Source: Psammoneis japonica (taxonomy: Eukaryota). From it: 64,000 bases of DNA. This document shows positions 1-64,000 of the stretch, piece by piece (the stretch's first letter is position 1; each line of letters opens with the position of its first letter). The notes under the pieces were generated by a model. That model searched no databases and was not told where the DNA came from. It saw nothing but the letters and a program-made list of their open reading frames with translations. The stretch spans positions 320,142 through 384,141 of the forward strand of contig QPGO01000067.1 of NCBI GenBank assembly GCA_008632985.1, in the 5' to 3' direction. A program made the position numbers and the translations under genes.

Positions 1-3000
1 TGTGGCCACCGGCACCACAGGTGCGACTGGCATTGTTGTGGTCAGCAACTGGTGAGTTGGTCTTCTTCCTTTTTCTTGGCGGCGTGGTCAACAAGAACAC
101 CAAATGGAAAGAAAACAGGATGAGTGACATCCCAGAGAAGGCAAAAATGTGAAATCTGACAGCAAATGCAAGACGCAGTTCTCATCACCAGCATTGGACA
201 AGCACAAAATGATTGACAAGATGGCGCATGTGGACAGCACTCCTTCTTCTTCATGTCAATGTGATGTGATCATGGGACACAACTTGATGAGCAATCTTGG
301 GATCGTGCTTGATTTTGCAAATGAAGAAATCAAATGGGAAGATGCAGCTGTGCCAATGAAGGATGCACATGCACCATTTGATGCTGAGGGTGGTCTTCAA
401 GCTGATTGCCAATCACATGGAGGAATCTCACACCATGAAAAGTCTCAATGACAGGGTCAACAGGATCCTTGATGCTGACTGTCACACTGCTGACCTCAAC
501 AATGTGACTGCTGCAACAGCAACTCACCTTGCTCCAGAGGAGTGGAAGCAATTGAACTTTCTTCTAAAAAGATTCAAAAATCTTTTTGACAGTTCCTCAG
601 GTGCATGGGCTGGAAAACTGGTCAATCTTGCATTGAAGTCAGGGGCAACCCCACATCATGCAGTGCCATTTCCTGTTCCACAAGCCTTGGAGGCAACTGC
701 TTGAAAGGAAGTCAAAAGCCTCTGCAAGACAGGAATCTCAAGAAAAACAATCCACTTAGAATGGGCAGCTCCAACCTTTGTTCAACCTGAGAAAAATGTC
801 GGAGTTCAATTTTTGTCCAACTTTTGCAAGCTGAGTCAGAGGTCAATGTGCACTCCGCACCCCCCACCTGACATTCAAGACATGCCGCAGAAGCTCAAGG
901 GCTTCATGCATGCAACGTCATTTGATTTGAACATGGGATGTCATCACATTAAGTTGACACCATGCGCACATTGGTTGTGCACCATTGTGATGCCGTGGGG
1001 CAAATGTGAGCACTGCAGACTGCCTGTGGGAATTTGTGGAGCTCCAGACATTTTTCAAGAGCACATGAGTGACCTCATGGCAGGCTTAGAATTTGTCAGG
1101 ATGCACATTGACAACATGCCATGCCTGACATGTGGTGACTTGAAGGATCATCTTAAAAAGCTCAAAACAACATTTGCGCAACTTGACAAGCTGGTTTAAA
1201 GTCAATGCCAAAAAAAACCTTTTGTGAAACCCAAAGTGGATCATCTTGGGTTTCACATTTTGCAGCAAGGCATCAAACCAATCCCCCAAAATGTGGAGGC
1301 AATTCAATCTGTCGCTGCTCCCAAAATGACATTTTTTTGGCATGATCAATTGTTGTCAAGATGTGTGGCCTCAACAATCTCATGCACTTGCTCATCTGGC
1401 CAGACTCACCTCATCCAAGGTCAAGTGGCAATGGGCAAGCATGGAACAAAAAGCCTTCAAAAATGTGAAGCAAATTGTGTCAAAAGATGTGTTTTTGGCA
1501 AACCCAAATTTTGACAAACCCTTTGAGACAAGCACAGATGCAAGCAATTCTAAATTGGGTGCCGTCACATCACAAGACAAATGACCCGTTGCCTTCTTTA
1601 GCAGAAAGCCAAATGGAGCACAGATGCGACACACCACAATGGAAAAAGAGCTGCTGTCCATCATTGAAGCTCTTCTTGAGGAGTTCTGAAATGTGCTGTT
1701 TGGTGGCCAACAATTAAAAACATTTGCAGATCATGAAAACCCTGCTCATGAGAATTTTGCTGTGGACAGAGTCATGTGTTGGCATCCAACAACAAAAGAA
1801 TGCAGTCCTGAAACAATTTGCCTCATGGGCAAGGCCAATGTCATCACAGATGCAATCAGCCAACTTGCTGTGAAACAAATGTAACCCATGGAAAACCTCA
1901 GCTCTGTGAAGAATTGGCAGAAAAGACAACCCCTGAGTCCCACAACAACGTCTTTCTGTCAACACACAAAGTTCTTGACACTGAACAAAAATGGGACAAA
2001 GGCATCCTCTCCAAATTGTCGGATGCAACACATCACGCAAAGACTTTTCATGGAGGCAAGCAAGATTGAATGCTTGTGTGTCACAAGGGAAAATTGTCGC
2101 ACCCAAAGACATTGCAAAAATTGGTGACAGATTGGTGTCATGCATGCCTTCTGCAACCTGGCATGAACTGAACAGAAGAGACAATCTCACGACACTCATG
2201 GTGGTCCACCTCACCTGAACACATGCAAAAATGTGTGTCAAAATGTGAGGCATGCCAGAAATTTAAAAAGAGACAAAAGAAACATGGACATTTGCCTCTT
2301 CCAAGTGTGCAGAAGCAGTGCCACAGGAAAGATCATGTGTGGATCTCATTGACCCACACAAAATGCATCACAAAGGGAAGAAGAAACCCCTGGTCCTAAA
2401 ATGTTTGATGATGATGGACCCAGCAGCCGGTTGGTTTAAAGTTGTGGAATTTCCAAATGAGGAGTCCACAACTGTCACTGGATTTTTGGAAAGAACATGG
2501 CCAAGCAGATGCCCTTGGCCATCATCAATTGCCTGTGATCATGGAAGCAAGGTTGCTGGACATCAATTTAAAACTGTGGTCCAAGATGATTGTGGCATCA
2601 AATGCAAGCCCATGACCATGCAAATCTGCAAGCTGGTGCCATCACAGAGCATGTGCACCAAGTGCCGGGCAATGTGCTGTGCACATTTGACCTGCAAAAT
2701 GCTCCTCTAGACACAGAGGATTTGTTTTGTGGAATGCTGTTGGCAGCAGCCTTTGCAGTGCATTCAACTTGTCACACTGCACGCAAGCTGCACCAGGACA
2801 ATTGGTCTTTTGTCGAGACATGGCATTCAATGTCCAGCACATTGCTGGCTGAAAATTTGTTCAGAAATGAAACAAAACATTGCAAACAGAAACAACCCTC
2901 AAGAAAATGCTTGATGCACTCCTCACACCTGCAGGGCAGGAGAAAAAATGTTGCTCAAGAAAGACTCTAAAAAGTTGGAACAGCTCTGCGTTGGACCCTG

Positions 3001-3120
3001 CAAAATGACAATGGCACATGCACAGCACAGATCAAACACAGTGATGTCATTGATGCTGTCAACATCCATTGAATTGTGCCATTTAATGAGTGACTCTAAC
3101 GTGCAATTGGGGAGGCTGGC
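1..3120 (+). mobile_element. Degenerate Ty3/Gypsy LTR retrotransposon pol (protease-RT-RNaseH-integrase order), heavily mutated
   Basis: Fragments appear in Gypsy order: protease tail DVIMGHNLMSNLGIVLDF (149-451), RT DLNMGCHHIKL / PWGKCEHCRLPVG / FVRMHIDN (813-1199), RNase H TDASNSKLGAV..EKELLSI (1342-1884) and integrase CVDLIDPH..DPAAGWF..CDHGS (2318-2800). Many stops and frameshifts. The ends are not resolved. Confidence 0.9.
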
Positions 3121-4262
3121 GCAGCACGTGTTGTTGAGCAGAAGGAGTTGCACATGCTCACAATTGTGCGCCATCATGTGTGTCAATCGCAACACAATGG
3201 CGGATGCATGCAAAGGACAGATGAATCATGCAGATGTGATCTGATGTCAAAAATTGCAAACACGATTGAGTGACGATGATGACACATGAGATGTCAATGT
3301 TGATCATGTCTGGACAATCTGCTGCAACGATCTGATTCTCCGCACAGCAAGGCCTTTGGTCCACAGAAGCAGTGCAAAAGCTTTGGGCCATTGAGGGCTC
3401 CTTTGGAGAAACTTCAAATCTCAGCACAAAATCTGATCTCACAATTTTCCACTTTTTGTGATTTACTCTGCTTTTGTTTGCCACTCGTTCTCCGAGCACA
3501 GTGCACAAGCACTCAAAAATTGCGACAGAAAGATGGATCAAATGAGAAACTCAAAGTTCTGTCACATGCGCCCAAGCAAGAGCATGTCTTGAGCACTTGG
3601 TCAGTGTGACGGATGTCACAAAAACCTTCAGATGTGCTGTGCCTTGGTGTTTGACAGGAAAGATGATGCACCAACTTTGTTTGGCTGCTTTCATTGGAGT
3701 GGCGCGACAGTGGAATTTCTCCATGGATGCAAGGGGCCCGGCGATGCGCTTGACAACTTGCGGCTCAACATGTTGGCACATCTTTGGGAGCTGAGCTGCA
3801 ATCTCATGATTGGGCATGACCACAATCATGTCTCAGGCTTCAAAAAGCCCAGGGTGTGAAGCACGGACTTGGGGACAACCACAGAAAAACAAAGAAGGGT
3901 CAGTGTGACAAGATGCAAAAGCACACAGATTGAAACAGTGTCCAGCTAGAGACTCACTGCCAATGGAAAGGAACTGCAAGGTCAACAAGAGGTCAACACT
4001 GTCATTTCTCATGAGGCAGGTGGCGGTGGCGGGCAGGAATGTGCACGCACGCACGCTCCTGTTCTTTTCGCACCTCTTGATCTGCGAATTCCAAAAAATC
4101 GAATCCAACGCATCGTGTCTCGTACGACGTGTCAACTGCGTTCTTGCCTCGCCTGTTGTTGTTGTTGTTGTCAGCACAGCTCAGCAACGTACCGCATTGA
4201 CACTTCGCAACTGCTGTGCTTACTGTCTGTATGTCGAATACTCTTTCGGTCGTCTGCTCATC

Positions 4263-6690
4263 ATGTCTGAAGCAGAGCAGGAATTCAATGATGAGGACGA
4301 CCTGAAATTGCCTGTCCCCACCATGAACATCTGCATTCTTATTGTCGGTACACATGGTGACATAAATCCGTTTCTTGGATTGGCGGACCGTCTGGTAGAG
4401 TTGGGACACCGCGTTCGAGTCGCAACACACCAGCAGCATCGCAAACTAGTGTTGACGAGTAATCACGATTTTTATCCCCTCGCTGGAGACGCCCGTCGGC
4501 TCTCCGAATGGATGGTGCAAACAGGAGGTACTGTAATGGGCGAAGCGAAGCATTTAGATGTGGTGCCGCAGAAGACAGCCATGGCAAAAGAAATCACTGC
4601 TTCTACTTGGGGTGCAGTTACTCTCCCGTCTCCGGATGATCTTGATTCGAAACCCTTTGAAGCCGATGCTGTTATCGCCAACCCTCCGGTGTTTGGTCAT
4701 ATCCATGTGTGCGAAGCCCTGAGCATCCCTCTTCACATTATGTTTCCACAGCCTTGGTATTATGGAACAAGGGATTATCCTCACCCGCTCATGGGAATGA
4801 GCTATGAAGAAAAGTCGGACGCGAACGTTTCTTCCTACGCGTATTTTGAGGCGATTCTCTTTTCAAGCATGTCCATGTTCATCAACGGATGGCGACGAAG
4901 GACCTTGGACCTCCCAGCTGTAAGCGTCTTTTCTGGTTTATCAACCGCGATTCCTCAATGCAAGATCCCTTTCTCCGCAATGTGGTCTCCCTCTTTTGTT
5001 CCCAAACCGGAAGAGTGAGTATTCTTATTTTGAAAAGTTGTACCACGTGGTAGCCTAGAGATGTCTCACTTCCCTTTCTCCCCACAATATGCTACGCAGT
5101 TGGCCGGAACAGTGTCGAGTTGTCGGCACATTTACCAAGACAAAGATCTTGGGTGGTCGACAGAGTCTGGTCGAAATCGATACCTCTCCATTTCAGGATT
5201 TGGTGGATTGGTTGTATAAAGGCCCGACACCAATATTTGTTGGATTCGGGAGTATGGTCATACAAGATCCCTCGAAGCTAGCTACAATGATAATGAAGGC
5301 AGCCGAAAAAGCGGATTGCCGAGTCATTGTACAGAGTAGCTGGAGCAAGCTAGATGTGAGCAAAAGCGAACGCTGTCATGGTGTTGGACCCTGTCCCCAT
5401 GATTGGTTGCTCCCTCAGACAGCAGCTGTCATTCACCACGGTGGAGCTGGTACCACCGCTGCGGGATTGCGATACGGCTTGCCAACGTTTGTTTGCCCTT
5501 TCTTTGGAGATCAATTTATGTGGGCAGAAATGGTTCGCCGTGCAGGCGTGGGGCCTGCTCCGTGTCCTGTAGGAGAACTCACGGTCTCGAAACTTGCTGA
5601 CAAATTCGTCGAGCTACGGAAGCCAGAGATCAAAGCTGCAGCGAAGAAGCTTGCAGCAAAAATGAAGAAGGAAGATGGTATTGAGGCCGGTCTAGACCAT
5701 TTTCTAAGCGATCTGCCTCTTGACAACATGCTTTGCGATGTCAGCCTTATGCTCGGGGAAACTCGCCTTGCGAAATATTACTCGCCGAAAGAGGGTGTGA
5801 AGCTTTCAATTGAAATGGCTGCTATCTCAAAAACAATTGCTGATACCCCCATTGGGGCGATGACCTCCATGGATTACTTCAAAGCGTGGTTGGAGAGTAT
5901 GAATAATGTAATCACGCAGGCTGAGCTGCGCCTTGAGAGACACCATGTCACCAGATTTGCGCTTGGGAGGGTACGGACATTTCCTGGAGGCATTTTAGCT
6001 GGATTCTTTGGCTTCATCCGTCACATATTCTTGACGGTCGTGGAACCTTTCTACCGCTCAGATGCGGGCGCTCGTTCGTATGGAATGGTGGGTTGTCTCG
6101 TTGGTTTTCTTGTTTCGCCTGTGTACATTGTTATGCATGTCTTTCGCGCGGTTATTGTGCTGGTCGATCGTATCGCCGTTGGAGTTTGCAATGGCTGCTG
6201 CGGCAAGTCTTATCTTTACACCGTTGACACCCAACGTGACGATAAGGTCAATGAGAAGGGGTTTGTCCGGAGCCAGGTTGACGAGCTGGCTGCGCGGGGC
6301 TTTAGCAAGGAAAGAGAAAAGCAAGCATTCCTTGCATTTCTTTTTGTTGCCAATGCCTTAAAGATCTACAATGACGCGAAACCATTTTACCCTGAGGGGC
6401 TATGGCACTTTCAAGTCGCCAAAGCTTCTGATCTTTTGGAAGCCTTCGAAAAAGGGAAGGAAAAGCTCGGGCTATCACTTGAAGAAATGGAAGATTTGAG
6501 AGCAACGTTACAACAAAGACAAGGAACTGACTTGAGTTTCAGCATGGTGCTTCTCATTTTACGCAAAGCGATTTCTGTCTCGGGTTCTACTCGGGAGTTT
6601 GAAAAGTTGGAACGTCGGGAAGTGTTATTTACGCCACCAGCCATTGAAATGTGGCGAACAGTGTTTGACACGACGGAGGAGGCGGTATAA
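4263..6690 (+). CDS. Sterol 3-beta-glucosyltransferase-like (GT28 N-domain; UGT80/ATG26 family), 2 exons
   Basis: Motifs VGTHGDINPF, HRVRVATH, PIFVGFGSM, HHGGAGTTAAGL and PFFGDQ. Removing intron 5015-5099 (GT..AG) gives PKPEDWPEQ. Start taken at MSEAEQ (4263). Confidence 0.9.
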
Positions 6691-40608: not shown

Positions 40609-43297
40609 CTATGAAGATGAAAAAGTATTTTGCTGTTGCGTTATACATGTTTGTTGAGATGATGCTTGTGAGTTTGATGTCAGCACTTCATGGATCAAGG
40701 TCATACACGTGAGTGAGTTCTGGATCAGTTTGGGTCCCCTCTGATAAAGAATTATGACGCCTCTATGGTTCGACAGCTGCAGTGGTGAACCTCGCTGAGG
40801 TGTTCCCAGTGCCAAACCAGAAACCTTGACTTGCCCTGCGAAACCTCCACGCCTTGGCTCGGGGCGGCTGTCACTTCTTCGATGAACAGCAAAAACTTTC
40901 GGTCCAAAGATAAGCCCAAGCGTGCTCATTGGAAACGTCCAGATCAGAATCGAATAACCAATGTAGCGCCCATCCTATTTCCAAAAGGGACAAAAATTGA
41001 GAGATAATTGCAAGCAAAGATAAGAAATGACCAGCATGACTTACAGTCGACACGTCATACAGCAGTGGTATCATAGGGAGGGAAAATAAGAGCACCTCGA
41101 GTTGAATCAATACCATAACGAAGATCCAGCGTGATTCCGAGAAAGCGTCATCGACATCCTTCGTTTTCCACGCCATGTAGAAAGTTAGCAGCGTCGGAAT
41201 GAGCAGGATGAACACAAGCGGAAGGATAAAAGCGATAGCTTCGTCTGACTTGCATTGCCCAATACTCTCGCCAGTTATCACATTAGTCTCGGTGCGAACC
41301 CAAGTCAGGCTATCCAGTCCTGTCCAAAGGCATAACACTACGAGGGCAGCGGCAGCGCAAAGAGCTGAAGGCCAGGCAACGTGGACCATATCAACCCTTC
41401 TCCGCGCAAACTGAAGCACTCTGTTGACACGCCAGAGCTTGCTAAAGAGACCTCCGTAAGTAAAAATGTGACCGAGGGAGGAGAGCCACGGTGTCGCCAT
41501 GCAAGCCCTGCTGAGTTGCTCTTCTGACCACCCGTAGCTTTCATCGAACGAAATTGTAATGATAGCAGAGACAGACACAGTGGCACCGAGACATATCAAG
41601 TAGAGGAAATATGGCTGGGCTGCCTTAACGTAACGGTGCTCACGATATACGTAGACCCAGACCGTAGAAGCAAGTGCCGCAGTCACCGCGATGCCGACGA
41701 AAGTAAACCCAAGTACTCGAACGCCTTTGCTCAGATAGTTCTGTTCCGGTACGTCACGAAGAAGATCTGGAGGCACAGTGCGACCATCAGCATATTCGGT
41801 GGGGTGGATAAATAGAAATGTGCCGTTGGTGTTCGGGTCTATAGGGCGAGGAATCTCTTTATACAGGAGACTGTTGTTGGGAAAGATGAAGTCTGAGGAC
41901 ACTTCTGGGAAGTAAAATATCTCTGCCAGCTCCCATGGATCATCACTACCACTAGGAGGATAGTTATTGAGGACACCCCAGATAGAGCTTTTGGGGTGCC
42001 TTGCTCCCCTCAAGCTACATTCGGTTTCGTCACAGAAACGAACGACACCCGACGCACCTGTGAAATTGACAGAGCGAATTCCTCTTACAAACGGATCAAT
42101 CGGTATATCCTCCGTACGGTTTGTTGAGGCCCAAGCTAAGCATGCTCCGATCCCTGTTGCCATAATCGCATCATACAAAAATGCCGATCCGTATTCTGGC
42201 ATGTTCTTGTAAAAGTAGTCTCCCTCAGCCTGAAACTGTCCTGGGATGCTGGGTATTGCTCGGTTAAGCTCATTCGCTTCTGCCGGGCCTCGACTCTTCC
42301 AAGAGCGCAGGAACGGATCGTGATCTTCCCCCAGGTGATAACCTTCAAAGGGTGTGATCCACACACTTCCTGTCAAAAACTCCTTGACGATGGGTTCAGT
42401 TTTGCCATAAAAAGGATCGTAGTTACCGAACCAAATCCACATGTAATCCCCATTTGTCAGTCCCATTTCAACCGCCTCTTTAGCCAGGAGCGGGATTTCA
42501 TCGACCGGTAGCTCTGGCGCAATAACAATGGTGCGATAACCGGAATCGAGAACGCCTTGAAAAGCTTTGCGAATAGTCCTCTCGTCACTGGCGGCGGGGC
42601 TTCGTAATGGCGAGTTGTAAGCAAACGCTCGATTCTCAATTTTCGCTGAGTCCAGTAAGATCTGCACAGTTTCGCGTCTGTAGGTCCCCGTCTCTGTGAG
42701 GGCATAAACAAAGGCAATGTAGTCCGTCCGACCTTTGTGCAGCAAATAGTATGAAAGCAACGTAGCACTAGAAAGGAGTTCCGGAAATATCATTGACGTG
42801 TAAGGTGACGTTTGATCAAGGGCCCGCATACTGAAGGCGCGATGAGCCGTGATTGGAAACTTGAGGGCCGCCGCCATGGTGGAGAGCTCCAATGTCGGTT
42901 GGTCGTGAAAGGCGCCGGCTACAGCGCATGGGAGCTCAGGCTGTGCAAGCAACGTTTCGGCAGCTAAATGGCTGTAGGAGCCCGTATCAAATATCTTCGA
43001 GTTTTCAAATTGTACAGGGCAATTGCGAAACTGCGCCAATTCCGAAATAACAGATGTGTTGCGACTATTGAAATGATCAATCGCCATAAGAGCTGCAGCG
43101 GCATGAGATACGCCCAAGTTGTTGCATTTTCCACACACGAAAGAATCATATGATTCATTCCCAAAGGTGAACGGAACAAACGTGAAAAGGTTGCACGAGC
43201 CATTCGCCGGAAGATTGGCTTTTACCAAGCCGATGCCGACGGCAGCAAGCAAGAAAGTGATGGTTCGAATGCCAAGATCAAATAACCTTGTCTTCAT
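40609..43297 (-). CDS. Class C (GABA-B-like) GPCR: Venus-flytrap domain + 7TM, paralogue 1
   Basis: AALMAIDHFN, YDAIMA, FTGASG, VKAAQPYFLYLICLG, LFSKLWRV, AFSESRWI. Intron after YDVST (~40977-41044); last exon LIFGPKV. C-terminal end uncertain. Confidence 0.88.
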
Positions 43298-51189: not shown

Positions 51190-51929
51190 TCTTTCTTTGA
51201 CAGATTGAAGATGTTTTCCTTCTCACTCTCGCCAACTTTCTTGTACCGTACTTACAGTACAGTACAGTACAGTAGGGCTACCGGTACTACTGTGCTCGAG
51301 TCGGACGAATCATTCGACTGAATGAATGACGTCTGCTGTTTTTGTCATTTTGCTTCTTTTTGTGCTTTCTTGTTTTTTGGATTTTTCGCTCTCAAATGGT
51401 CGAATTGTCACAGCTTTGACCTTCAGACTAACCAAGGGACTGACGCTTCAACAGCCCATGACATTTGGTGCTGCTGTCAAGAGCATCATTTCTTTTTAAT
51501 CACACCAAGAATGAGTGTGGCTGTGCAGGTTTTTCACCACACCACTTTTGTCTCGTCATGGCGATCATGTCTCTTGGCTCTGCTTGCTGGCAAAAAAATG
51601 TTTGGGAGAGCAGCCTGCATCTCTTTGTCTGGAGTGCCCATGTCTTCACACCTCCAGCCACTCTGGCTGCAGTGTGTCATGTCATGAACAACACAACACC
51701 ATGAGAAGATGACAATCTCTCTTGCACCAATGCAGAGAAGGCCAGCACAGCAACGAGCGGCTCTTTCTTTAGGAGGTTGCTGATCATCAGGCCGTTCGGA
51801 AAAGGCAACCCCAGTCCATGGGTGCAACAAAGTCACTGTGGCTGCTGCTGTTGCTGCAGCAGTTGAGAGTGTGTGTTTTCCAAATGATGAGCATGTTGTG
51901 TTGATTCCAAGCCGTTCCCCAGTCGCCCA

Positions 51930-52130
51930 AGTTGGCAAAACTCACGAAAGTTGACAAGTTTGCCAAAGCAGACAAAGTCACCAAATTTGACAAAGTTGCA
52001 AACTTGCCAAAGCTGACACCAAAGTCAACAATTTTGCCAAAGTCACCGAAGTTGAGAATTTTGCCAAAGTTGACAAAGTCGCCAAAGTCAACAATTCTGA
52101 CAAACTTGCCAAAGTTGACAAACTCAAAAT
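51930..52130. repeat. Degenerate ~9-bp-period tandem repeat
   Basis: Units such as aaagttgac, aaagtcaac, aaagtcacc, aaagtcgcc, aattttgcc and aaacttgcc, repeated about 20 times. Confidence 0.8.
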
Positions 52131-55100
52131 GACAGATGTGTCAACTGCCCTCTCTGTTGCTCTCTGACTGCTGCTTTCTCTGCTGTCTGCTGATGCACTC
52201 TTGGTCCAGCTCTGGTGGTTGGCTGTGGTGCAAGCCATGAGCACCAGACCTCAAACTGGAGGAGCACCAGGTCTGAGGAACATGGAGTTGGAGCTCTGGT
52301 GGCTGAAGAGCTGCAAAGGGTGGTGGCATGGGCTGCAACCAAGAACTCACTCTCTCAACTCATGAATGTGCAGTGCAACATTGATGTTGGAACATTGGGG
52401 TGAGAGGTGGTTTTCACAGGACAGACAATGTTGCAGAGCAAGACATGCCAACAATTGCAGACAATGTTGTGGTGAATTTGCACTTGCAACTCAGGTTGAG
52501 TTGCGAGTCTTGTGCTCACTTTTTAGCATCTGAACCCAGCCAACACACAGCAGTGGTCAATGGCACAGGGGATGCATTTGCAAGCAATGCAGTGAGTTCA
52601 GGGTTGGTGAGACTAAACAGGTGCCAGCTGGCAAGCTGTGAAACTCCAGTGCAGAAGCTGAAAAGTCACAGCATGACACTCAAAGGAGTGACATTGTTCT
52701 GAGGCAAAGATTGTTGGGTTGCTTCCTTTGACAAAGATTTGTGTGACAACACTGATCCAGTGTAGACTGCAGTCTGTCTCACAAATTATGGTGGACAGGA
52801 GAGGAAGTTCCCAGAGATTGTAAAAACAACACACACCAATGCACACATGTTGTGTGATGTTGGCATGTCCTTTGCTGGCAACAAGGGTGGCCAGACTTTG
52901 CAGAAAAAGCCATCTTCCAACAAGTGGTTGTGCCTTTGGGAGATGCCATGAACCCCAAACAGTGTCATGGGACATGAGCAATTGGTGGCATCTGGAGTGG
53001 CCATGTTCTTGCACTCATGTTGACTCCACAAGTGTGCAACAAACTGGGGGCACAAACACTGTGGGTTGTGGTGGTGCCAGTGGTTGGATTGGAGGAGCAA
53101 GCGCACAAGAAAGAAGCTTGCAAGAACATTGGGAATGCTGGTGGCAAACACATGTCATCAAAATGGGCTGGAAATCCTTTGTCATGTGATGGTTTTCATC
53201 TTCACAGTGTGTCATTGATTGTCAGCTACCTTCATCATCACAATTCACAGACATGAGAAAGGGCAGTTCTTCTTTGTTGAGAGAGTTCATGGCTCAGGAA
53301 ATGACACGCACAACTCAGCACACATCATTTTTTGGGGTGAGTGCATTGTTGCTGGTGCTGTCATCATGCATCACATCCATCACTGTGTGCTGGAACAAGT
53401 CATCATTTGGCGTGACAAGGACATCATGCTGCAGTGGTTGTTGTGGTCAGTTTGCAGTTGTGCGCCAATGTCTTTGTTGCAAAAATGATGGCAAAGAGTG
53501 AAAAATGACAACCTGGAAGGAAAGAAATTGATTGAAGCAAGGAGGAGGGTGTTGGTGAAAACATCTCACAAATTTTTGCAGTTTTTGTTTTGAAAGTTCA
53601 AGTCCATTCTTGACAGAATCTTTCATTGCACTTCTGACCTCTCACCCATGAGAGAACTGCATCTACAACATGTTCTCTCTCTTGAACAAATGAACAAACA
53701 AAATCTCTCTCTCTCTCTCTCTCAACAAGACAATCCATTGACAAATTTTTGCACCTGTGATTGCACTCTCCACAGGTGGCAAAATTTCTGCAAAATTGAC
53801 CATGGTGATCACTTTGGATGTGACTTTGAATGATGTTCTGATGCTGCTGGTTCACTTTCAGTCACAAATCTGGCATTGCCAAAGTTGTCATTTGAGGTTG
53901 GCAGTTGATTTTTCCAACAGTCATGAATTTGCAATGTTTTGCTTTGTGCCCTGGCATCTTGTTCAGAGCTGAGTTAGCTCATTTGTTTGTTGGAAGAACT
54001 TTGGCTTGATTGCCTGTTGCCTGTTTTCTTTTTGTGTTTCTGTTGCATTTGTCTCTTTGTTGCATTGGGCACCACACAACCCAGCCACCAACCCATTGTT
54101 TGCATGGCAACAGCGCACCACTGTTGCAACTCCCTTTGTCCTTGTTGCTTGACTGACAACAAACAACAATGAAAAGACTCTCCTTTCAAAATGAACTTCT
54201 CATTGAAAACCAACCCACTTTTGATGGACAGCACAGCTGCAAACTTCAATCCTTTCCCTTTTTCCATTGTCAATTTGTCATGCTTTGTCAGTTGATCATT
54301 TGTGCTTCTTGTTGCTGCAAATGCTCATCAACTGGTTTGACCTCATTGTCATGTCACAATTTGACAAATTCCAACATCAACCTAGATCACACCAGAATGG
54401 TTCAATCTGCACTTCATTCAATGCCACTTTCTTGAAGCTGTTGATTGGCAACAAATGTGCTGCAAGCACTTTTTGGGGTGCCAAGTCATCTGGGCCAACA
54501 TGGCTGCGATTTGATTTTGTGTTTTTGTTTTGGTCCATGCTGGCAAATTGCACTCTGTTGTGGCTGTGGGGCAGTGGATTTCTGCCAGTGAACCACCAAA
54601 TCATGTCAACTGTCTGTGCAGCTCTTCTTTGTTGCTCAGTGGATGTGCCAGCTTTGTCTCTTGCAGAAGATTGTAGAGGGTGGTTCAGAAGGTGCAATGC
54701 TTGCTCAAGTGCTGGCACCAATTTCTTGCTTGTCAGAGAGAAGGACCAGCACACTCCATGCACCTGACTCAAGGGACCCAGACTTCATGAGTGGCAGGTA
54801 CAACCAAGGCTTTGGTTGCAGAAACCTCATTTGACATTGAGACTTTGCACAAGGCCAGGCATGGATGATTGACACCACATTGCAACAACTGTGTTGTCAA
54901 TGAGATTGGCCACAAAGACTTGCTCTTGACAATGCAAAGCAAAAGCATGTGGTGTGCAATCAACAAAGCCCAATGTCACATTTCTGACTCACATGCCACC
55001 AACCAATCCTCCCACAAGATCCATTCTTGCTGCTTGAACTTTGGATCAGGGCAAATGGAAGCGGGCACTTGCCTGGTTGTTGCAGCTCTTCTTTGTTGCT

Positions 55101-55284
55101 TCCATCCAACAAAGAGAAACTTGTTTCAAAAATGCCACTGCAAATTTATCCACCATCCTCCTCAAGCCATTTTGCCGCTGCACACAAAGCAACTCAATGT
55201 TTCTGGCATTTGTCCCAGTGCATTGCTCATTGAAGTTTTGCTTGCCCGCTGCTGCTCAGCAATCAAACCTTTGAACAAGCAACC

Positions 55285-55760
55285 CTGGAGTTTGGAAATT
55301 CACATCTGCTGTTGCTGGGAACAAGGTGACAGTTGTCGCTCAGGTTGGCTGGCACAGTCATGAGGTCATTTCACTCTGGAGCTTGGAAATTCAAGTCTGC
55401 TGCTGTTGCGCACAACATGCCATGGGGCCACAACATTTTAAGACCAATCTTGCAATGCCCAACAACAGCTCTTGAAGCATCACTTGGGGTCTGCCAAAGA
55501 CCACCACAGTCCTCAGCTTGCTGTCATCAGGTTGGTTGGCACTGTCACAGGGTCTTTGGATTCTTGGGAGTTTGAAAACTCAAGTCTGCTGCTTTTGGGG
55601 ACAAGGTGACATGGGGCCAGCCACAGTGCCACATGATCAACCTCACAATGCTCAAGCACAGCTCTTGAAGTCACACCTGTCCCACCACCAACACCACCAG
55701 TGCCCCCTCAGATTGCAGCTGCCAGGTCAGATGGTGGTGTCATCATGGGGTCCATCTGGA
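55285..55760. repeat. ~190-bp repeat family, cluster 1 (2-3 degenerate copies)
   Basis: Core ctctggag(c/t)ttggaaa(t/c)tcaagtctgctgct..catggggcca..ttgcaatg..cctcagcttgc..caggttgg, shared with 60960-62110. Confidence 0.8.
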
Positions 55761-57394
55761 ACACCAATGATCTTTTCGAATTGCAGCCAGGCAAATTCTT
55801 TGTTTGATCCAAGACTGTGCTGATTTGTCCAATCTGCATTTGTGAAATGTTCAATGACAAACATCCACATTCCTGAAGTCAACATTTTATTTGCCGCATG
55901 GACAAAACTGCAATGTGGTTTGAGCTCATGTCAATCCCTGAGTGAAGTGTTGCCCACTTTCTTGGATCAAAATCTCTGCAGTCATGCATCAAGTTTGACT
56001 CTTCTTTGTTCCAATTTTTTTTCTCGCTGTCATTGCCATTGTTTGTTTTTGGGCAATGCCTCTCACCTTGTTCTTCTTCATTTCTTTTGCAGCACAGCAT
56101 CTTTTGGTCCTGCTCTTTGCCAAGTGATTGCTGCACCATGTCATTGATGTTTGCTTTCCTCATTGCATTGGCCTTGTCATTTCTCCAACATGCTTTGCCA
56201 GGGATGCAGTCTGATGGTCTTGTTTGTCCTTGGTTCAAACATTCTGGGTTTGGTTCTGTGTGTGGTCTCAGCCAGCATGTTGCTGGCAACTGCCTTCATT
56301 CCATGGGTCCAACCAAGTCTTTTAGTTGTCTGCATTGCAGACAACATGGTCTTGACTCCAAAAAGCAGGTGTGCAGCTTCTGCTGTTCTCCCTTTGCCAG
56401 GAACACAGTTGCACTCAAGAGCTGAAACATCCTCCCTGTCCCTGTCTGGTTGGACATTGGTTTCTTTGCTTCCTTGGGATGTCCAATGCTGACACAGACC
56501 CAACAACATTGCCCTGCATCTTCAGAAGCATGCTCCCCGTCACAAGAAGGAGGAAGCTTCCCTTTGATGCTCTGCTGGCATTTCAAACACTGCACCACTT
56601 CATTCTTCTCTCCAGACAATGACACATTTGGCGACAATGACAACAACTCAATGTTTGGTTTTGCCAATGACAACCCCCAGCCCCCTTCCTGAAGAGTCCA
56701 TTTGGACCCAGATCCACCTCCTCCCATGCACTTCAACAATGCTTCTCCTGTCAGCTCCCCCTCCACTGGAAATGGTCTGCAACCCCCTCTGTCAGATGCT
56801 CTGGTTGATTGCACACTGCTGCCAATCTAGCCACTGCCAATGCAGCCGCTGCAAATGCCCACCAATTTGTCTTCTTTGCCAATGATGGTGTGTCTGCCCT
56901 TGGAGAGGAAAGCCCTTTGGATGTTCCTGAGCATCATTGCAGTTGATTCTGTCAATGGCACTTTGGGTCCTCCTTTGATGCCACATCCTGCAGAAGACAC
57001 AACTTCTCCTTCTGCAAGCATTGGCTTGGCAATGCTTCCTTCCTTGTTTGATCATGAGAATCCACTGGGACCGGTGTGCAGGCATGCCCCTGATGAGGAC
57101 TTTGACATCCCTTTGGTTTGTTCTTCACCCAGCATGGCACCCATGGTTTGGCTGTTCCATCTCTGTTGTTGGTCAGGTGCTGCAATTAACTTCATCAACA
57201 AAGTCATGAGAATGGTCCATGAAGAGTGAGCATGCCAAAAAAAGATTGGATTTGACAAAGCCTCCAACTGCTGTGGCAATGAAGCAACTTCTGGAGCTGT
57301 TCCCCAATGTCCCTCTCCCCCACACTGCTGTGCAAGTGAACCCACAACAGAAGAAAAAGACAAGACCAAAGGCATTGAACAACTTGCACAAAAA

Positions 57395-57830
57395 GTGTTG
57401 GATCTCCTGCCTGACTTTCCCCTGAAAGATGCTGCTGCAAAGAGGATTGCTCTGCAGACAGCAGTCCATGCACCAGCAACATGTTCCAGATCTGCATGTT
57501 CCAGATCTAACTTCTGGTCAAAGGGGGAAATGCACCTCAATTTTCTAGAGACAGATTTGAGTCATGGATGCAAATCATTTGCAATCTTTGTTGTGTTCCT
57601 TGATGACACAACTCAGGACAATGGCACCATTGAAATTTGGCCAGACAGCTGCAATGCCCCATGTCAAGCAAGAAGGAGTGTGAAAGACAGCAGGCAAGGT
57701 TGGGTTTGAAAAAAAGCTTTTGGCAGGTGCAGCAGGTTCTGCCTTTGTTTTTGAAGCCAGGATGTTGCACTGTTTGTTGCTGAACAAAACAGAGTTGGGT
57801 TGGAAGAACATGGTGTGTCTGACTCACAAT
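57395..57830 (+). pseudogene. Decayed PhyH-like 2OG-Fe(II) dioxygenase
   Basis: GEMHLN (HLD if CpG decay is reversed), FVVFLDDTTQDNGTIEIWPDS, then after a stop and frameshift GSAFVFEARMLH. Confidence 0.55.
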
Positions 57831-59449
57831 TTTGAATCAGCCAAGGTGCAGCAGTGCATTGTTGTAAAAATCAAGGATTGATGAAGGCACTCACACTTGG
57901 CAATTGTGTCAAACAATGTTTCAACCAATGGTGACATTGTGTCACTGCAGATGACAAATGATGATTGGCGTCTGCCGCAGATTTGTGCAAAGAGAGTCAT
58001 CAATGGATCAACACAGATTGGCAGTGGCGAGCTTTGCCAGCAAAGGATGAGGAACACCACACCACTCTAACAAGATTTTGGGGGTGAGAATTTGCATTTG
58101 ATGTGCTTTGCACAGTCAATCATCATGAAATGCCTTGGTGCCATGATGCCAGCTCTTTTTTGTGTGCTTGTGCAGGAGATGCACATTGAAGCTGCCACCC
58201 CATGACAGATCCATGGGACAGGCACAGGAACAAAACAGGATTCATGGCTCCACTCATGGGCACAGCCACAAAACATCCCATCAAGTGCAATCACAATGGC
58301 TCCCTCTGGACATTTGTTTGTTGTTGGCACCTCCTCAAGGCAACTTTGTGTTGTGTTTTCATCAAACAGGAACCATCCATTGCAGTTGTTGAAAAAATCT
58401 TGGTGTCAAAACCACAGTGCAAACCATGAACTGAGTCATCTTCATCAAGAAAGGAGCTGTTGATCAAAGTGGGGCACCTTTCTGGTTCATTGGGCCAAAT
58501 GCCAGCACACCACTTGCTGCCCAACTGGTGGCAAGGATGACGCAGCTCTCAATGCTGCAGGCCCAACAGTTGGGAAAAAGCAGATGACAAGAAGCAATTG
58601 CCAAACCAGCATGACCACCACCAGCATCAATGAAACTGAAAGTGCTGTTGAGCCCACCACCAAACAGGGATGGGTGGCCCAAAACCTTGGCACCTGAGTT
58701 AAAATTGACCATCCCTCCATGTGACTCTGCATTGCCACCAGCAACATGACCAAATTGATGCTCAATCTCCAGCATGTGATGGCAGAGCACAGGGAATGTG
58801 CTTTCTGGCAGTTGTGGTGGTTTGACACAACCACATCCATTTGGATCAACAACCGTTCTTTTTGGGTGATGGTGGCAGCAGTTGGAGACAGAAGCATTTT
58901 GTTTGTTGGGACAAATGAGATTGTGGTGCATTGGTGGTGCGAGGGCATTGGAGTGTGGAGGGAACAATCAACCAGGTTGCTGAAAAAAATTGTGGGAAGA
59001 GTTGCAGATTTTAAACAAATGAAAAATGCAGACTGGCACATGCAAAAATGGCTCACATTGAAGCACAATTCAAAACAGTGGAAGGTTTTGAAAATTTTAA
59101 ATGTCAGGTTGGAAACAAGCTCAGAAATCTGATGCAGAGCCCTGCTCAAATGAACCTGGGAGAAGCAAGCAACAGCAGAATGAGAGAAGATCACCAGCAA
59201 AGTGCACTCATTTTGTGACTTCTTGTGTCACAAACCAGACAGAACACAGCAAACAGTGCAACACAAGAGCTGCCTGTTGGAAAGGGAGAGATGATGGAGG
59301 AGATGGTTGTCACAGGAGCAACAATGCAAGATGGTGGGAGTGCAACATCAAGTGGCAAGCCAGGTTGGAGAGAGCAGGACAAAGACCAACAGTTGTGTCA
59401 ACAAGTTGTGGTTGGCCATTTTGGCACATGCTGCATCACAGTTGCCATG

Positions 59450-60420
59450 AGTCCTGTGGTGGTGGGATTGTTCAACACACAAACAAATGAGCATGGGGAG
59501 CTCAACCGACTCCAGTTGGTGAGCAGAGACTCCATTTCTGTTGTGACTCCCATGGAGGAATGTCATGTGATGGATCAAGCTCCAGCAGTTGGCAGGAAAT
59601 TGATGGGGTCTATGTTGATGAGGGTGGTTAATGAAAGTGTGTGGCTGCATTGCAAGTTCATGACAATCTTCAACAGAGAACTTGCTGCAGGAGGAGAGTG
59701 CACAAAAATGGCTCTGCAGGAGTTGAGGAGCATGGCATCTGCGCTGGAGGCATTCTGTGGTGCACAGAAAGAGGCATTCAGGAAAACCTCAACCACAAAA
59801 GGAACAACATGCAGGACAACACAAGGAGGAAGATGACAGGCAAGCCAAACAGTGCAGGTGTTTGACACTCATGAACAAGATTGTTCAACGGGTCAGGTGT
59901 TGACTCCTTTGTTTTTGTCAAGGCAGCTGCTGCTTTGGAGGGGTCACTGGTTCAGTGCAAAGAGTTCATTGAGGGCAGGGCTGACAAAGACAAGTGCATG
60001 TGGTTCTTGGAAATGGCAGCACCAACTGTGGTGGGCCAAGCACAGTTTGGCAGAAGCATGATGGATTTGCTCCAAGAGTGGCTCACCAAATCATTGGAGG
60101 CCGTTTGCTCTGCTGGCACACAAACTGCTGTGACAAGGCAGTTGACATGACAGAGAAGTTGGAGAATGACACCAACATTGCATGGCAAAGAAAGTGGACA
60201 GCAGAAGATGCTAAACCTGCAAAGTGCACAGCACAGGAAAAAGGGGAATCAGCTGAGAGCAGCCAAGGATGGAGCATGGATGGGATCAAGAAGTGCAACA
60301 AACTGTGTGAGTGGGTGATGAAAGACCAAGAGGAGAATGAAGGACTTGGTGCATGCCAGCTCAAGGAACAGAGGCAAGAGAAGGCAAACTCTTTCAAGGA
60401 GGCAGAGAAGAAATGAAAAA
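59450..60420 (+). pseudogene. Decayed ORF of unknown, probably transposon-associated, protein
   Basis: Consecutive protein-like fragments ending AKCT..GWSMDGIKKCNKLC (AKYT..GWSTDGIKKYNEL if the mutations are reversed) and a Glu/Arg-rich tail. Confidence 0.35.
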
Positions 60421-60959
60421 GAGAGGAGAACAGGGAGGAGAGAGAGAGGACAGATGGGCTGCACTGGTGATGGGAGAGGACCTGCCCTTGCAGCCAGTGG
60501 CTGGTGCCAGCAATGGTGCGGAAGCAATTGCAGCCATGGCAACAACACAAACTGGTGCATGAGTGCAAATTGCAGCAAACAATGAAATCCAGCAGAACAT
60601 GGAAAAAACAATGAGGCAAACTGCAAGGCAATTGTCAGTCAAGAACAAATGGCAGTTGCAACATTTGCTTTTAACACAATGATGCAAAGAGACAAAATGC
60701 AGAAAGACATTGCAGGTGAAGATGGTGGATTGAAAGTGACAAGAGATGTGATGAAGAAACTGGGAGCAGCAAATGACAAAAAGGGTTGAGATTGAAGTTG
60801 TGGGCAAGAACATTTGCACTTCAAAGTGGGGTGCAATTTAAAATCGAAAAGAAGCTCACAAACTCAATTGGTTCTCAACTGATGTTTGAAGAAAGACTTG
60901 GCTTGCAAGTTCACAACAATCTGAAATTGGAGTCAAGAAACACCCAGATTGTGACAGGT

Positions 60960-62110
60960 GGTCAGACACAGATTGTTGGCATCCCAGATGTCCTTTCACT
61001 CTGGAGCTTGGAAGTTCAAGTCTGCTGCTGTTGGAGACAAATTGACACGGGGCTGCAACACCATGACATCAACCTTGAAATGTCCAACCACAGTTCTCAA
61101 AGTGTTGCCTGGGGTCCACCAGAGATCCCCAATGGCTGGTGCTGTCATGGTTTTTTTTCACACTCTGGAGTTTGGAAGTTCGAGTCTGCCATTGACAGGC
61201 ACACATGACATGGGGCCACAACACCTTCAAGATCAACCTTGCAATGTCCAGCCACAGTTCCCACAGTGTCACCTTGGGTCCACCAGAAATCACCAGTGCC
61301 CTCAGCTTGCAGCTGTCAGGTTGGCTGGTGCTGTCATGGGGTCCTTTCACTCTGGAGTTTGGAAACTCAAGCATGCTGTTGTTGCGCACATTGTGGCATG
61401 GGGCCACAACACTCCAAGATCAACCTTGCAATGTCCAACTGCAGTTCTTAAAGTCACACCTGGGATCTGTCAGAGATCACCAACACCCTCAGCTTGCTGT
61501 TGTTGTCAGGTTGATTGGTGCTGTCATGGGGTTCTTTTACTCTGGAGTTTGGAAAAGTTCGTGCTGCTCCTGTTGGGGACAACATGACATGGGGCCACAA
61601 CACTTCACGACCAATCTTGCAATGTCCAGCCACAGTTCTTGAGGACACACCCAGGGGGGCACCACCAGATTGGTTGGCACTGTCATGGGGCCCTTTCACT
61701 CTGGAGTTTGGCAGCTCAAGTGTCTGCTCCTGTTGGGGACAATGTGACATGATTGAGCAACAACGCCGCAACACCAACCTTGAAATGTCTGGCCACAGTT
61801 CTTTGAGCAAGTGTTGCCTGGGGTCTGCTGCCAGAGATCACAAATGCCAACAAGAGCTTGCTGTTGTCAGGTTGGTTGGCACTGCAATGAGGTCTTTTCA
61901 TTCTGCTGGAGTCTGCCTTGGAAGTTTTCAAATCTGCCCCTGTTGGGGACAAGGTTGCATGGGTCCACAGCACACTGCAACATCAACTTTTCAATGTCCA
62001 ACCACAGTTCTTAAAGCACTGCCCTCAGCCTGCTGCAACTTGTTGGGTGGGTTGGTGCCATCATGGAGCCACTTTGCTCTGAGGCTGGGAAGCTCAAGTC
62101 TGCTTTGCTG
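60960..62110. repeat. ~160-200-bp tandem repeat, cluster 2 (about 7 degenerate copies)
   Basis: A ctctggag(c/t)ttgg core recurs near 60999, 61163, 61350, 61540 and 61699, with more diverged copies near 61905 and 62078. Confidence 0.85.
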
Positions 62111-62405
62111 TCTGTGCCAGCCCACTGGAAACAAGAGTGCACTGACATGGGCAGCCATTTGTCAGGGAAAGCTGGTGTTGGCAGGAGGTGCTGCAGTTGC
62201 AGCACCCCCATGTCTCTCGGGCCTGCTGCTCTGGCTCTTTGCTGGCACATGTCCAGCACAATGGGTTGTTGTTGCAAGTGTGTGGGTTGGATTGACAGAA
62301 AATGAAGATGACTGGGTGGAAGAAAACAATGACTCCTTGCTGCTGTCTAAACAGCAGATGAGTCTCCATGCAGAGACCGTCACAGGAGCCGAAAGACTGG
62401 TGTCG

Positions 62406-62537
62406 TGACATCGGTGCTGCTGTTGTCATTCTTGTGAGCCGTGTGGCTTGAAAGCAAACCACATCGCGCGACGCGTGCGGAACTAAGAGCACACACAATT
62501 GTGTGTGACAAACTAAAATCTTGTTCAAATCCTGTCA
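62406..62537 (-). repeat. Probable 3' LTR of the Copia element
   Basis: Follows a polypurine tract GGGGAG on the minus strand (62538-62543). Termini TGACA..TGTCA form an inverted repeat. CpG-rich sequence stops close to this end. Confidence 0.6.
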
Positions 62538-64000
62538 CTCCCCAGTTTGCTTGAGGGGTCAACAGCGACAGATTCGAAGTCGGATTGGTTGAAAGCCTCG
62601 GGATCGAAGTTCCAAAACATTAGAGGACGAAGGAGGTTCCAGATTTGGGAGCAACCCCAGTGCTTGCTGAGGATGTCAGCCGGGTTGCGGGAGCCTTGGA
62701 CAAAATGAAACTCGAGGAAACCGGAGGCAATCGCCTCACGCACACGATGGAATGAGAGGGCGGTGTGTCGCGTGTGCAACTTGGAGTGCGGGATGGCAGC
62801 ACTGTCCACAACCGACTTGTTGTCCCCAAACATGCAGCATGTTTCACGAATGGGAACGCCAAGGCAATGCAAAGTGATGCGCAGATCAATGATCTGCTCG
62901 ACACACGTCCTTGCGGCAACAAACTCGGATCCATGCGTGGCAGTCTCGACTGTTGCTTGTTTCTTAGAGAACCAATCAGCCGGAAACTTGTTGAGAAAAT
63001 GGAGGATGCCGGTGACAGAGCGGCCAGTGAGCATGCAATGGAACAAGTTCGCATCGATGCAGTGCGTGGTGGTGACGAACTTGCCAAGCGGCTCGGGCGC
63101 ATCTTGTGGGAGCAGCTCTTCTACCTCCCCATGCACGGATTGAGCCCAATCGCACACGGGCTCAGGGAGGTCCGAACAGTCGGGCTCCTCGGTGTGCACT
63201 CGGAGGGTGCCATGACGCATCTTGGAGAGGAATCCGCAGATGCATTTGGCACGGTCTAGGTGGCCTTGACGGGGCACTGCACGGAAGCCAGACAGGGACA
63301 TGACAGCTGCAGCAATGTCAATGCGACCCAGAGATGTGGCCCATTGCAGGGATCCAATCAAGGATTGGAGTTGGTGGATGCCATCCGGTTTGAGTGATTC
63401 AGAGGTGTCGAGCTCAGGGTGGTCACCCTTGTCAAGGGGTGAAAGCACATCAGTGCAGGGCTTCTCCCCAAAGAGGCATGTGCAGTTGTCAACCATGTGC
63501 TCAATGCACTTGCGGGGAGCAAGGCACAGGGTGCCGTCTGGGTCACAGGTGAAGTCGCAGCCAAGATGGAACTCCAATGGTCCAGCGCCCTTGAGCTTGA
63601 ACTTGCACTTCTCCATGAGGGTGTCTGCAAAAGCCTGGGGGTCCTTCATGGTGAAGGCCAGGTCGTCCACATGCACTGCCACGTGTTCGCAGTGGTCACC
63701 ATTCCTGCGCAGCCAGATGTCGGGTTCAGCTTTGCATGGAAAGAAGCCTTTGGCACGCAAGCAATCGGCAAAGCGTTCATGCCATCTGAGGCCGGAGCTG
63801 CGGAGTCCGTACAAGGCCTTGTGGATGACAAGGATGTGTCCTTCCAGGTCGCCGAACTCGGGGCCTGCCACGATGCACAGTTTCTCCTTGGTCGCAGCTT
63901 CAAGGCAGGCATTCCCAATGTCAGTGGCCCAGGTCTCTAGTTTGTTGAGTTCGGCCAGGAAGATCATCATTGCAGGCCATGGAGAGACACCACTCCGGAA
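62525..64000 (-). mobile_element. Ty1/Copia (diatom CoDi-type) retrotransposon RT-RNaseH, truncated by window end
   Basis: DIGNA(C)L, KALYGLRSSG, AV(H)VDD, DANL, RSVTG, SKKQATVETAT(H)GSEF, GDNKSV, FHRVRE, NPADILSK. 481 aa open, with only one Tyr. Confidence 0.95.

Follow-up and report, generated by a model that had tools for sequence, protein, structure and literature searches.

Introduction

Only one report known to us, a 2026 preprint on the chlorarachniophyte Bigelowiella natans, a rhizarian alga, describes a eukaryotic genome defence with A:T to G:C polarity. In this alga, an integrated giant virus and virophage undergo hypermutation at a rate of ~6e-7 per site per generation (Mettrop et al., bioRxiv 10.64898/2026.01.13.699255). 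According to the available part of that preprint, 230 of 231 new mutations in these inserts were A:T to G:C changes, all of them at TpA; TpA-poor coding sequences were enriched for reverse transcriptase, and an ADAT2-like adenine deaminase was proposed. In this work, we describe a signature of the same kind in the diatom Psammoneis japonica, in a stretch of 64,000 nucleotides (contig QPGO01000067.1 of GenBank assembly GCA_008632985.1, positions 320,142 to 384,141 of the forward strand) that is called the window below and is numbered from its first letter. The window begins with a dead copy of a Ty3/Gypsy retrotransposon nearly devoid of TpA (the left domain) and ends in a second TpA-stripped region that includes a Ty1/Copia fragment (the right domain), with a gene core between them.

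Other systems also bear on this locus. Repeat-induced point mutation (RIP) of ascomycete fungi is a DNA-level process that makes dinucleotide-specific transitions on both strands, is confined to repeats with sharp edges and inactivates transposons; it converts CpA to TpA and leaves AT-rich, TpA-rich DNA with many stops. In the available parts of three further reports, diatom transposons are described as methylated at CG by DNMT5 (Hoguin et al. 2023, PMC9998398), the amphioxus tRNA deaminase BjADAT2 as active on DNA in the contexts 5'-GAA-3' for A and 5'-TCG-3' for C (PMC10354150), and animal retroelements as carrying ADAR hyperediting and APOBEC editing imprinted in DNA (PMC4866542). A literature search for TpA-targeted mutation in diatoms returned no report; most of what it retrieved concerned fungal RIP, along with the B. 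natans preprint.

Depletion of TpA in the Window

The first-pass annotation of the window, made from its letters, had noticed about 20 TpA in the first 4.1 kb, some 18 of them within YTAR (Y, pyrimidine; R, purine). A direct count of positions 1–4120 gives exactly 20, and 18 of these are YTAR (TTAA 8, CTAA 5, TTAG 3, and CTAG 2), which differs from the 25% expectation with a binomial p = 1.6e-9. The two other survivors are GTAA at 1882 and TTAC at 3464.

Dinucleotide composition was profiled as observed/expected ratios (O/E) in sliding 2-kb windows. The left domain holds 10–13 TpA per 2 kb, corresponding to a TA O/E of 0.07–0.09, together with a CG O/E of 0.15–0.29, a TG O/E of 1.98–2.12, and a CA O/E of 1.65–1.76. 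In contrast, the gene core (~4.2–51 kb), which had been described as much richer in TpA, indeed carries 59–115 TpA per 2 kb (TA O/E 0.45–0.83, CG O/E 0.81–1.10). The right domain, from ~51.6 kb to the window end, has a TA O/E of 0.04–0.10. The ATAN class is absent from both domains, against ~90 expected in the left and ~210 in the right one. The GC content of the TpA-stripped DNA is 0.44–0.46, near the genomic value.

About 215 of the ~236 TpA expected in the left relic have been lost. A mass balance that takes the O/E of intact relatives as the starting state gives 347 TA and CG lost versus 374 TG and CA gained in the left domain, 1044 versus 1025 at 51.6–62.4 kb, and 79 versus 87 in the Copia fragment. 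Among stop triplets counted in all frames of the left domain, TAA and TAG together number 38, versus 233 for TGA.

Identity of the Gypsy Relic

Positions 1–4018 are the 3' two thirds of a dead Ty3/Gypsy copy (protease, reverse transcriptase (RT), RNase H, and integrase; PR-RT-RNaseH-INT), with stops and frameshifts, in a diatom nuclear genome, in agreement with the earlier reading of the left domain as a Gypsy relic. When the RT frame was translated with its three stops set to X, phmmer retrieved 19764 proteins (best E = 5e-75); the direct RVT_1 match of the same frame is weak (E = 0.017) and falls under the cut-off because of the mutations. Pfam RT_RNaseH_2 matches 1330–1581 (E = 3.9e-11) and 1585–1686 (E = 3.9e-06), and 9 of the 11 relic pieces submitted to the Pfam scan, including the protease-region and integrase parts, gave no match.

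The nearest DNA relative retrieved is a metagenome locus, L001, with ~57% DNA identity to the relic. Its pol of 1078 residues shows the Pfam order RVT_1, RT_RNaseH, Integrase_H2C2, rve, the last two domains lying within residues 668–1047. By tblastn, positions 152–3010 are collinear with residues 92–1047 of this pol in five frame-shifted pieces, one of the shifts falling near 1325–1330, between the RT and RNase H remnants (Table 1). Since RNase H adjoins RT and integrase lies downstream, the order is PR-RT-RH-INT, that of Gypsy and not that of Copia. Only the 3' end of the element lies in the window, and the 3' long terminal repeat (LTR) is presumably contained in 3011–4018. A diatom host is indicated by a neighbouring serine carboxypeptidase gene, the best named homologues of which (59–67% identity) are found in Attheya, Cylindrotheca, Nitzschia, Pseudo-nitzschia, and Ditylum.

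Table 1. Features of the two TpA-stripped domains and of the left domain edge, with window coordinates.
Feature	Position	Strand	Evidence and remarks
Hypermutated Ty3/Gypsy relic	1..4018	+	TA O/E 0.07, CG O/E ~0.2; 5' side truncated by window edge
Pre-RT remnant, probably protease region	152..364	+	tblastn, L001 pol residues 92–161
Reverse transcriptase remnant	405..1325	+	phmmer; tblastn, L001 residues 174–480; in-frame stops 702–704, 1197–1199
RNase H remnant	1330..1881	+	Pfam RT_RNaseH_2; tblastn, L001 residues 487–668; stop 1582–1584
Integrase remnant (zinc-binding and core), several frame changes	1905..3010	+	tblastn, L001 residues 668–1047
Non-coding 3' part, presumably with 3' LTR	3011..4018	+	multi-copy depth to ~4000; equally TpA-stripped
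Sharp edge, then promoter region of neighbouring glycosyltransferase gene	4019..4132	.	CG density, TpA at 4122, run X2 contig from 4133
Repeat relic without recognisable domain	51601..62400	.	10.8 kb; TA O/E ~0.04, CG O/E ~0.06
Ty1/Copia RT-RNaseH fragment	62519..64000	-	RVT_2 E = 1.1e-13; open 491 codons

Tyrosine Codons and Comparison with Relatives

Comparison with related sequences indicates that the TpA poverty of the relic is mutational and not intrinsic to its family. The first-pass annotation had named intact relatives that are equally TA-poor, with Cys or His at the same positions, as an outcome that would overturn its reading. Instead, all 79 related Gypsy loci, collected with peptide patterns containing Tyr and so biased toward intact copies, with converted copies undetectable, have a TA O/E of 0.56–1.18. 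Homologous RT proteins contain 3–5% Tyr, about 1% Cys, and about 2% His; in the relic frame, none of the 385 residues is Tyr, while Cys amounts to 4.9% and His to 6.2%.

The replacement can be followed codon by codon along L001 pol. Over 900 aligned codons, the 41 Tyr codons of L001 read in the relic as Cys (16), His (11), or another residue (14), and never as Tyr; Trp is kept at 14 of 17 positions, Phe at 23 of 32, and Gly at 28 of 36. None of the 187 TpA sites of L001 is still TA in the relic, where 59 read TG and 47 read CA, and 2 of 102 L001 CpG sites are retained. In an alignment of 62 sequences, the ten columns with a Tyr majority are occupied in the relic by Cys (3), His (5), Phe (1), and Trp (1); the Phe and Trp readings fall behind the frameshift near 1330, and the correct frame reads Cys-Cys. 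A closer family member available as protein only (P0169, 56% identical) has Tyr in the motifs ILDADYH, KPYHAKP, GFTYATS, NMGYYH, and PWGKY, where the relic carries Cys or His. Of the Cys and His readings picked out earlier from the letters, five were recovered (MGCH at codons 939/942, GKCEH at 1005/1011, RMHIDN at 1104, INCCQD at 1351/1354, and GPCK at 2999), and every one of them lies in a column with Tyr in the relatives; the sixth, STCH, falls outside the conserved columns. The change of Met to Val behind T, also proposed at that stage, is seen at 1026.

Sequence Context of the Changes

The context of the A-to-G changes was assessed in both relics at columns that are at least 70% conserved, for Ile, Met, Thr, Asn, and Lys, the codons of which start with A. 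Behind T, such codons show G in 19 of 30 cases and keep A in one; behind A, C, or G, they show G in 8 of 147 (odds ratio 30, p = 4e-12), and behind A alone in 3 of 32. The enrichment of A to G at TA over AA, CA, and GA, on which the earlier interpretation depended, is therefore present.

The relic differs from the relatives at 201 of 475 conserved Gypsy columns. Single transitions account for 108 of these differences, with 47 at TA (TA>TG 25, TA>CA 22), 35 at CG (CG>CA 24, CG>TG 11), and 26 elsewhere; 41 further differences are transversions, and 52 are multi-step. Counted by type of change, 47 of 59 A>G or T>C changes at these columns lie in TA, as do 15 of 16 in the Copia fragment. The coding strand shows TA>TG and TA>CA in similar numbers, so both strands have been affected. 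The non-coding 3' kilobase is as TpA-stripped as the coding part.

The bases flanking TpA also matter. In the left relic, the O/E is 0.25 for YTAR, 0.00 for RTAY, 0.01 for RTAR, and 0.02 for YTAY, versus 0.80, 0.86, 0.58, and 1.04, respectively, in the 79 intact relatives pooled. Loss of YTAR is thus slowed by ~3-fold, and the other flank classes are reduced at least 50-fold. In the gene core, YTAR is the rarest TA class (0.37); in the relics, it alone survives. These patterns suggest a 5'-TAY-3' target that may lie on either strand, and slow YTAR fits this rule because it is the only class without 5'-TAY-3' on either strand. For Tyr codons, the rule allows Cys (A to G) unconditionally and His (T to C) only with a purine before the codon. 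Among 41 Tyr changes in the Gypsy and Copia elements, those with a 5' pyrimidine gave Cys 16 times and His 3 times, and those with a 5' purine gave Cys 10 times and His 12 times (Fisher p = 0.02).

Right Domain and Separation from CpG Decay

An unrelated element in the right domain carries the same signature, as the first-pass annotation had suggested. The Copia fragment (Table 1), 53–67% identical to the copia proteins tested, lies in a 491-codon stop-free frame that extends past the window end. Its TA O/E is 0.05–0.14 and its CG O/E is 0.41–0.94; 8 TpA remain versus 63 expected, a loss of ~87%, while 264 of 310 conserved residues (85%) are kept. The 46 differences comprise 15 of TA type, 6 of CG type, 1 other transition, 14 transversions, and 10 multi-step changes. 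Sixteen conserved Tyr positions now read Cys (9), His (4), Tyr (1), Leu (1), and Phe (1); 17 of 21 conserved Arg are kept. The fragment is an intermediate stage, with TpA almost gone and CpG mostly present. Its TpA loss runs far ahead of CpG decay and of all other change, which points to a fast, specific process and not to slow drift.

CpG decay is a separate layer, slower than TpA loss. Its superposition on the left relic, as noticed earlier, is evident from the low CG O/E with a gain of TpG and CpA and from the 35 CG-context transitions at conserved columns, and the Copia fragment allows it to be separated. It would be consistent, by analogy, with the methylation of CG by DNMT5 on diatom transposons. 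Other hosts commonly show CpG decay with TpA retained: the metagenome Gypsy loci L016, L043, L058, L069, L071, and L075 combine a CG O/E of 0.04–0.17 with a normal TA O/E of 0.56–0.74.

The remainder of the right domain, 51601–62400, is probably an older relic. Gypsy and Copia queries found no tblastn match in it, and 27 of 28 open frames of the right domain had no Pfam match. Arrays of ~170–180-bp direct repeats, 68–77% alike, occur at 55340–55750 and 60990–62016, ~5.6 kb apart; these arrays may belong to the paired LTRs of a single old element.

Edge of the Relic, Copies, and Neighbouring Genes

The edge of the left domain is sharp, within ~100 bp. CpG density climbs from 4021 (17 CG in 4001–4200), and the first TpA past 3947 is at 4122. 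Left of 4018, 875 contigs of run X1 align at a likeness of at least 80%, and a single-copy X1 contig begins at 4018, so the mutated zone coincides with a multi-copy repeat. TpA loss is restricted to repeat DNA, and neighbouring genes are unaffected. Duplicated host genes are spared as well, since two class-C GPCR-like paralogues have normal TpA and CpG. These paralogues (ANF_receptor and 7tm_3 domains) lie at 40871–43303 (-) and 48931–51222 (-) and share 75% DNA identity over 2.4 kb.

Of the 1018 places at which X1 copies vary from the window, 782 are transitions (A>G 228, G>A 190, C>T 189, T>C 175), and each type of transversion occurs 13–42 times. This excess of transitions in all four directions argues for independent decay after insertion and not for editing of sense RNA or of a single cDNA strand before integration. 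Among the variable places listed, the sole covering X1 contig at 1314 and at 3170 has A versus the CpG G of the window; such CpG/CpA polymorphism inside the relic may hint at continuing CpG decay.

The gene that directly adjoins the relic, at 4260–6690 (+), resembles sterol/UDP-glycosyltransferases. Its 5' region is covered by a run X2 contig that starts at 4133, some 115 bp beyond the edge of the repeat, and joins 5014 to 5100 with GT..AG ends, which corresponds to an 85-bp intron. Spliced-looking X2 contigs are confined to 4133–6000.

Proposed Mechanism and Alternative Explanations

The observation made in the first-pass annotation is confirmed, and its interpretation as a targeted process is supported. 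We consider it likely, from the pattern of the changes, that these elements record a post-insertional, DNA-level deamination of adenine at 5'-TAY-3' in silenced repeats, joined by a separate CpG decay. A Gypsy copy would insert and then undergo two context-specific transition processes, both ending at the repeat edge. The dominant, faster one would change A:T to G:C at TpA on both strands, with 5'-T-A-Y-3' as its target, and would read as T to C in R-T-A when it acts on the opposite strand; it would replace Tyr by Cys or His, Ile by Val, Met, or Thr, and Leu by Ser or Pro. The other would be the ordinary decay of CpG to TpG or CpA that is expected from 5-methylcytosine (5mC) on silenced diatom transposons. 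We infer that the first process is enzymatic and targeted, with an activity that would choose the DNA of silenced mobile elements and deaminate adenine there, rather than attack thymine, to hypoxanthine, as a genome defence. A broader proposal, held with more doubt than belief, is that diatoms, and perhaps SAR (stramenopile, alveolate, and rhizarian) protists generally, possess a dedicated TAY-reading DNA adenine deaminase that erases transposons in a stop-free and GC-neutral way, as a mirror image of fungal RIP. TAY agrees with the U33-A34 step in the anticodon loop of tRNA and would therefore point to an enzyme derived from TadA/ADAT2. Bacterial TadA acts on U-A-C.

Several points weigh against TAY-directed adenine deamination. 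That no TA-poor locus appears among the 79 relatives is partly by construction, because the search patterns required Tyr, and the polarity of the changes rests on relatives as distant as L001. The argument from speed comes from the Copia fragment only, since the left relic is old, with transversions or multi-step changes making up 93 of its 201 differences. The predominance of YTAR among the survivors, noticed earlier, stands as a slowing of loss, and not as immunity: none of the 41 YTAR sites of L001 is still TA in the relic, and other genomic copies differ from the window at YTAR sites, e.g., at 789 and 2438 (among the variable places listed). Exceptions to the context rule, which had also been noticed, are real, with three His codons after T (942, 1242, and 1747) in the relic; 3 of 15 Tyr-to-His events violate the TAY rule. 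The flanks of L001 sites show the expected strand trend weakly (RTAR to CA 15 and to TG 11; YTAY to TG 19 and to CA 10).

Error-prone resynthesis of silenced or methylated transposon DNA by a polymerase-eta-like enzyme, which would place G opposite T at WA motifs (W, A or T), is an unlikely explanation that nevertheless accounts for part of the data. It could take place, e.g., during non-canonical mismatch repair of T:G arising from 5mC deamination, with CpG itself usually restored, and would explain why TpA loss and CpG decay share domains; it also predicts the Copia pattern, with TpA lost and CpG mostly kept. A WA preference of polymerase eta is described in the somatic hypermutation literature; however, a WA signature should affect AA appreciably, and AA is barely affected here (3/32 versus 19/30 behind T). 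The need for a 3' pyrimidine is no described feature of the polymerase, and, in the available part of the preprint, the hypermutable regions of B. natans are without accompanying C to T (bioRxiv 10.64898/2026.01.13.699255). Attack on thymine is quite improbable: a TET/JBP-type oxygenase or other T-modifying activity would mark T in R-T-A in silenced DNA, giving a 5-hydroxymethyluracil (5hmU)-like base that mispairs with G. A to G in TAY and T to C in RTA are the same event on opposite strands, indistinguishable by sequence, and in dinoflagellate DNA, 5hmU prefers TpA; we know of no such thymine modification in diatoms. Moreover, 5hmU pairs mainly with A, and near-complete conversion would require an extra step.

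Slow, untargeted neutral decay, combining a general bias against TpA with CpG methylation, draws on the moderate TpA poverty of the gene core itself and on the age of the left relic, with its many transversions and frameshifts. It is very improbable in view of the Copia fragment, which has lost most of its TpA and yet retains most of its conserved residues and its long open frame, of a context ranking opposite to that of the core, where YTAR is rarest, and of the sharp edge. Scarcely credible is an ADAR-like A-to-I hyperediting of the transcript, which would then have been reverse transcribed and reinserted as a copy that carried its mutations from the start. ADAR enzymes form a metazoan family. 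A 5' U is the favoured ADAR neighbour, as cited in the B. natans preprint (bioRxiv 10.64898/2026.01.13.699255); the 3' neighbour here, however, is a pyrimidine and not G. Editing of the sense RNA can appear on the coding strand only as A to G, whereas TA>CA is nearly as frequent as TA>TG and 15 Tyr codons became His; the non-coding 3' part is equally affected, and the copies differ mainly by transitions, as in independent decay after insertion. This strand symmetry refutes RNA editing as far as sequence allows. An inherent TA poverty of the family, brought about by selection on the element or by its codon usage, has nothing in its favour and a negligible chance of being right; it is refuted by relatives with a normal TA O/E and 3–5% Tyr; conserved Tyr of the catalytic region have been replaced, and the relic carries stops and frameshifts.

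Three other candidates were rejected. A single enzyme acting on A at TA and on C at TCG does not suit a CpG loss that goes beyond TCG, nor the Copia fragment, in which the two processes come apart. GC-biased gene conversion is at odds with a GC content that is not raised and with the sparing of AA, CA, and GA sites. An assembly or sequencing artefact is countered by 88 X1 contigs that match at 99% or above and by the codon-consistent nature of the changes.

Comparison with Known Systems

As in B. natans, according to the available part of the preprint, the changes affect TpA only, lead to TpG or CpA depending on the strand, are confined to foreign or mobile DNA, and leave CpA+TpG enriched. With a TA of 0.07 and a TG/CA of 1.7–2.1, the relic lies within the thresholds given there (Rho TpA ≤0.43, CpA+TpG ≥1.52). 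Unlike the rhizarian B. natans, the host here is a diatom (Stramenopila), and the targets are multi-copy LTR retrotransposons mutated to near saturation. An extended TAY rule with slow YTAR is seen here, while the available preprint text spells out no neighbours beyond TpA; likewise, CpG decay is superimposed here and CpG goes unmentioned in that text. The signature is of the same kind as that of B. natans, in another supergroup lineage, and the added detail consists of the TAY motif, the absence of new stops, and independence from CpG.

The likeness to RIP covers all the general features named above, from DNA-level transitions on both strands to the inactivation of transposons. RIP is thus a functional analogue, but its chemistry runs the opposite way: TpA is destroyed here and not created, GC is kept, and no stop arises. 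A test for RIP accordingly failed, with a TA O/E of 0.07, enriched CA and TG, and a GC of 0.44–0.46.

The 5mC decay of diatom transposons, as far as the available part of the report describes their methylation (PMC9998398), explains the CG O/E of the relic and its replacement of Arg by Gln, Cys, or His. It cannot explain TpA loss, because in the Copia fragment TpA is gone and CpG is largely kept. ADAT2/TadA proteins resemble the putative activity in being zinc deaminases capable of A to I in DNA, with a natural substrate, U33-A34, that is a 'TA' step; the TAY context here differs from the GAA/TCG contexts given for BjADAT2 in the available part of its report. The ADAR and APOBEC imprints of animal retroelements are, as described in the available text (PMC4866542), likewise clusters of deaminase-made transitions fixed in retrotransposon copies; those imprints are pre-integration and strand-asymmetric, with G to A for APOBEC, whereas here both strands and the non-coding part are affected.

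Consequences for Coding Sequences and Annotation

The two processes differ in what they do to reading frames. An exhaustive check over sense codon pairs found 0 in which TA>TG or TA>CA turns a sense codon into a stop, versus 122 cases for CG>TG/CA. The TpA process kills by missense (at Tyr, Ile, Leu, Met, and Thr), strips TAA and TAG in all frames, and keeps GC near the genomic value. Because TAA and TAG are nearly absent, 51200–64000 (12.8 kb) is overlapped by 47 open frames of at least 110 codons, on both strands, which are long and meaningless; the blank domain searches are likewise explained by missense, stop-free conversion at TpA.

The same property accounts for Tyr-free or Tyr-poor RT 'proteins' in public collections. 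At least eight such Gypsy RT entries come from other public contigs (P0008, P0043, P0088, P0097, P0110, P0142, P0156, and P0191); they belong to families other than that of the window, contain 0–1% Tyr, and have Cys or His at conserved Tyr positions (e.g., NMGCCH). On the evidence of these eight sequences, the TpA signature exists outside this window. The process escapes GC-content scans and RIP indices, lowers the sensitivity of domain searches, and leaves false long frames, so that the annotation of repeats and genes in such genomes may be distorted.

Significance

Natural rewriting of A:T to G:C at a defined short motif is very rare. The sharper motif described here (TAY, with YTAR slow) constrains any candidate enzyme and makes the question of the enzyme testable; if the proposal is true, a natural TAY-specific DNA adenine deaminase would be of interest for base editing. 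For the biology of the host group, the finding that two unrelated superfamilies of retrotransposons in a diatom bear this trace at saturation suggests that the system is widespread among major marine phytoplankton.

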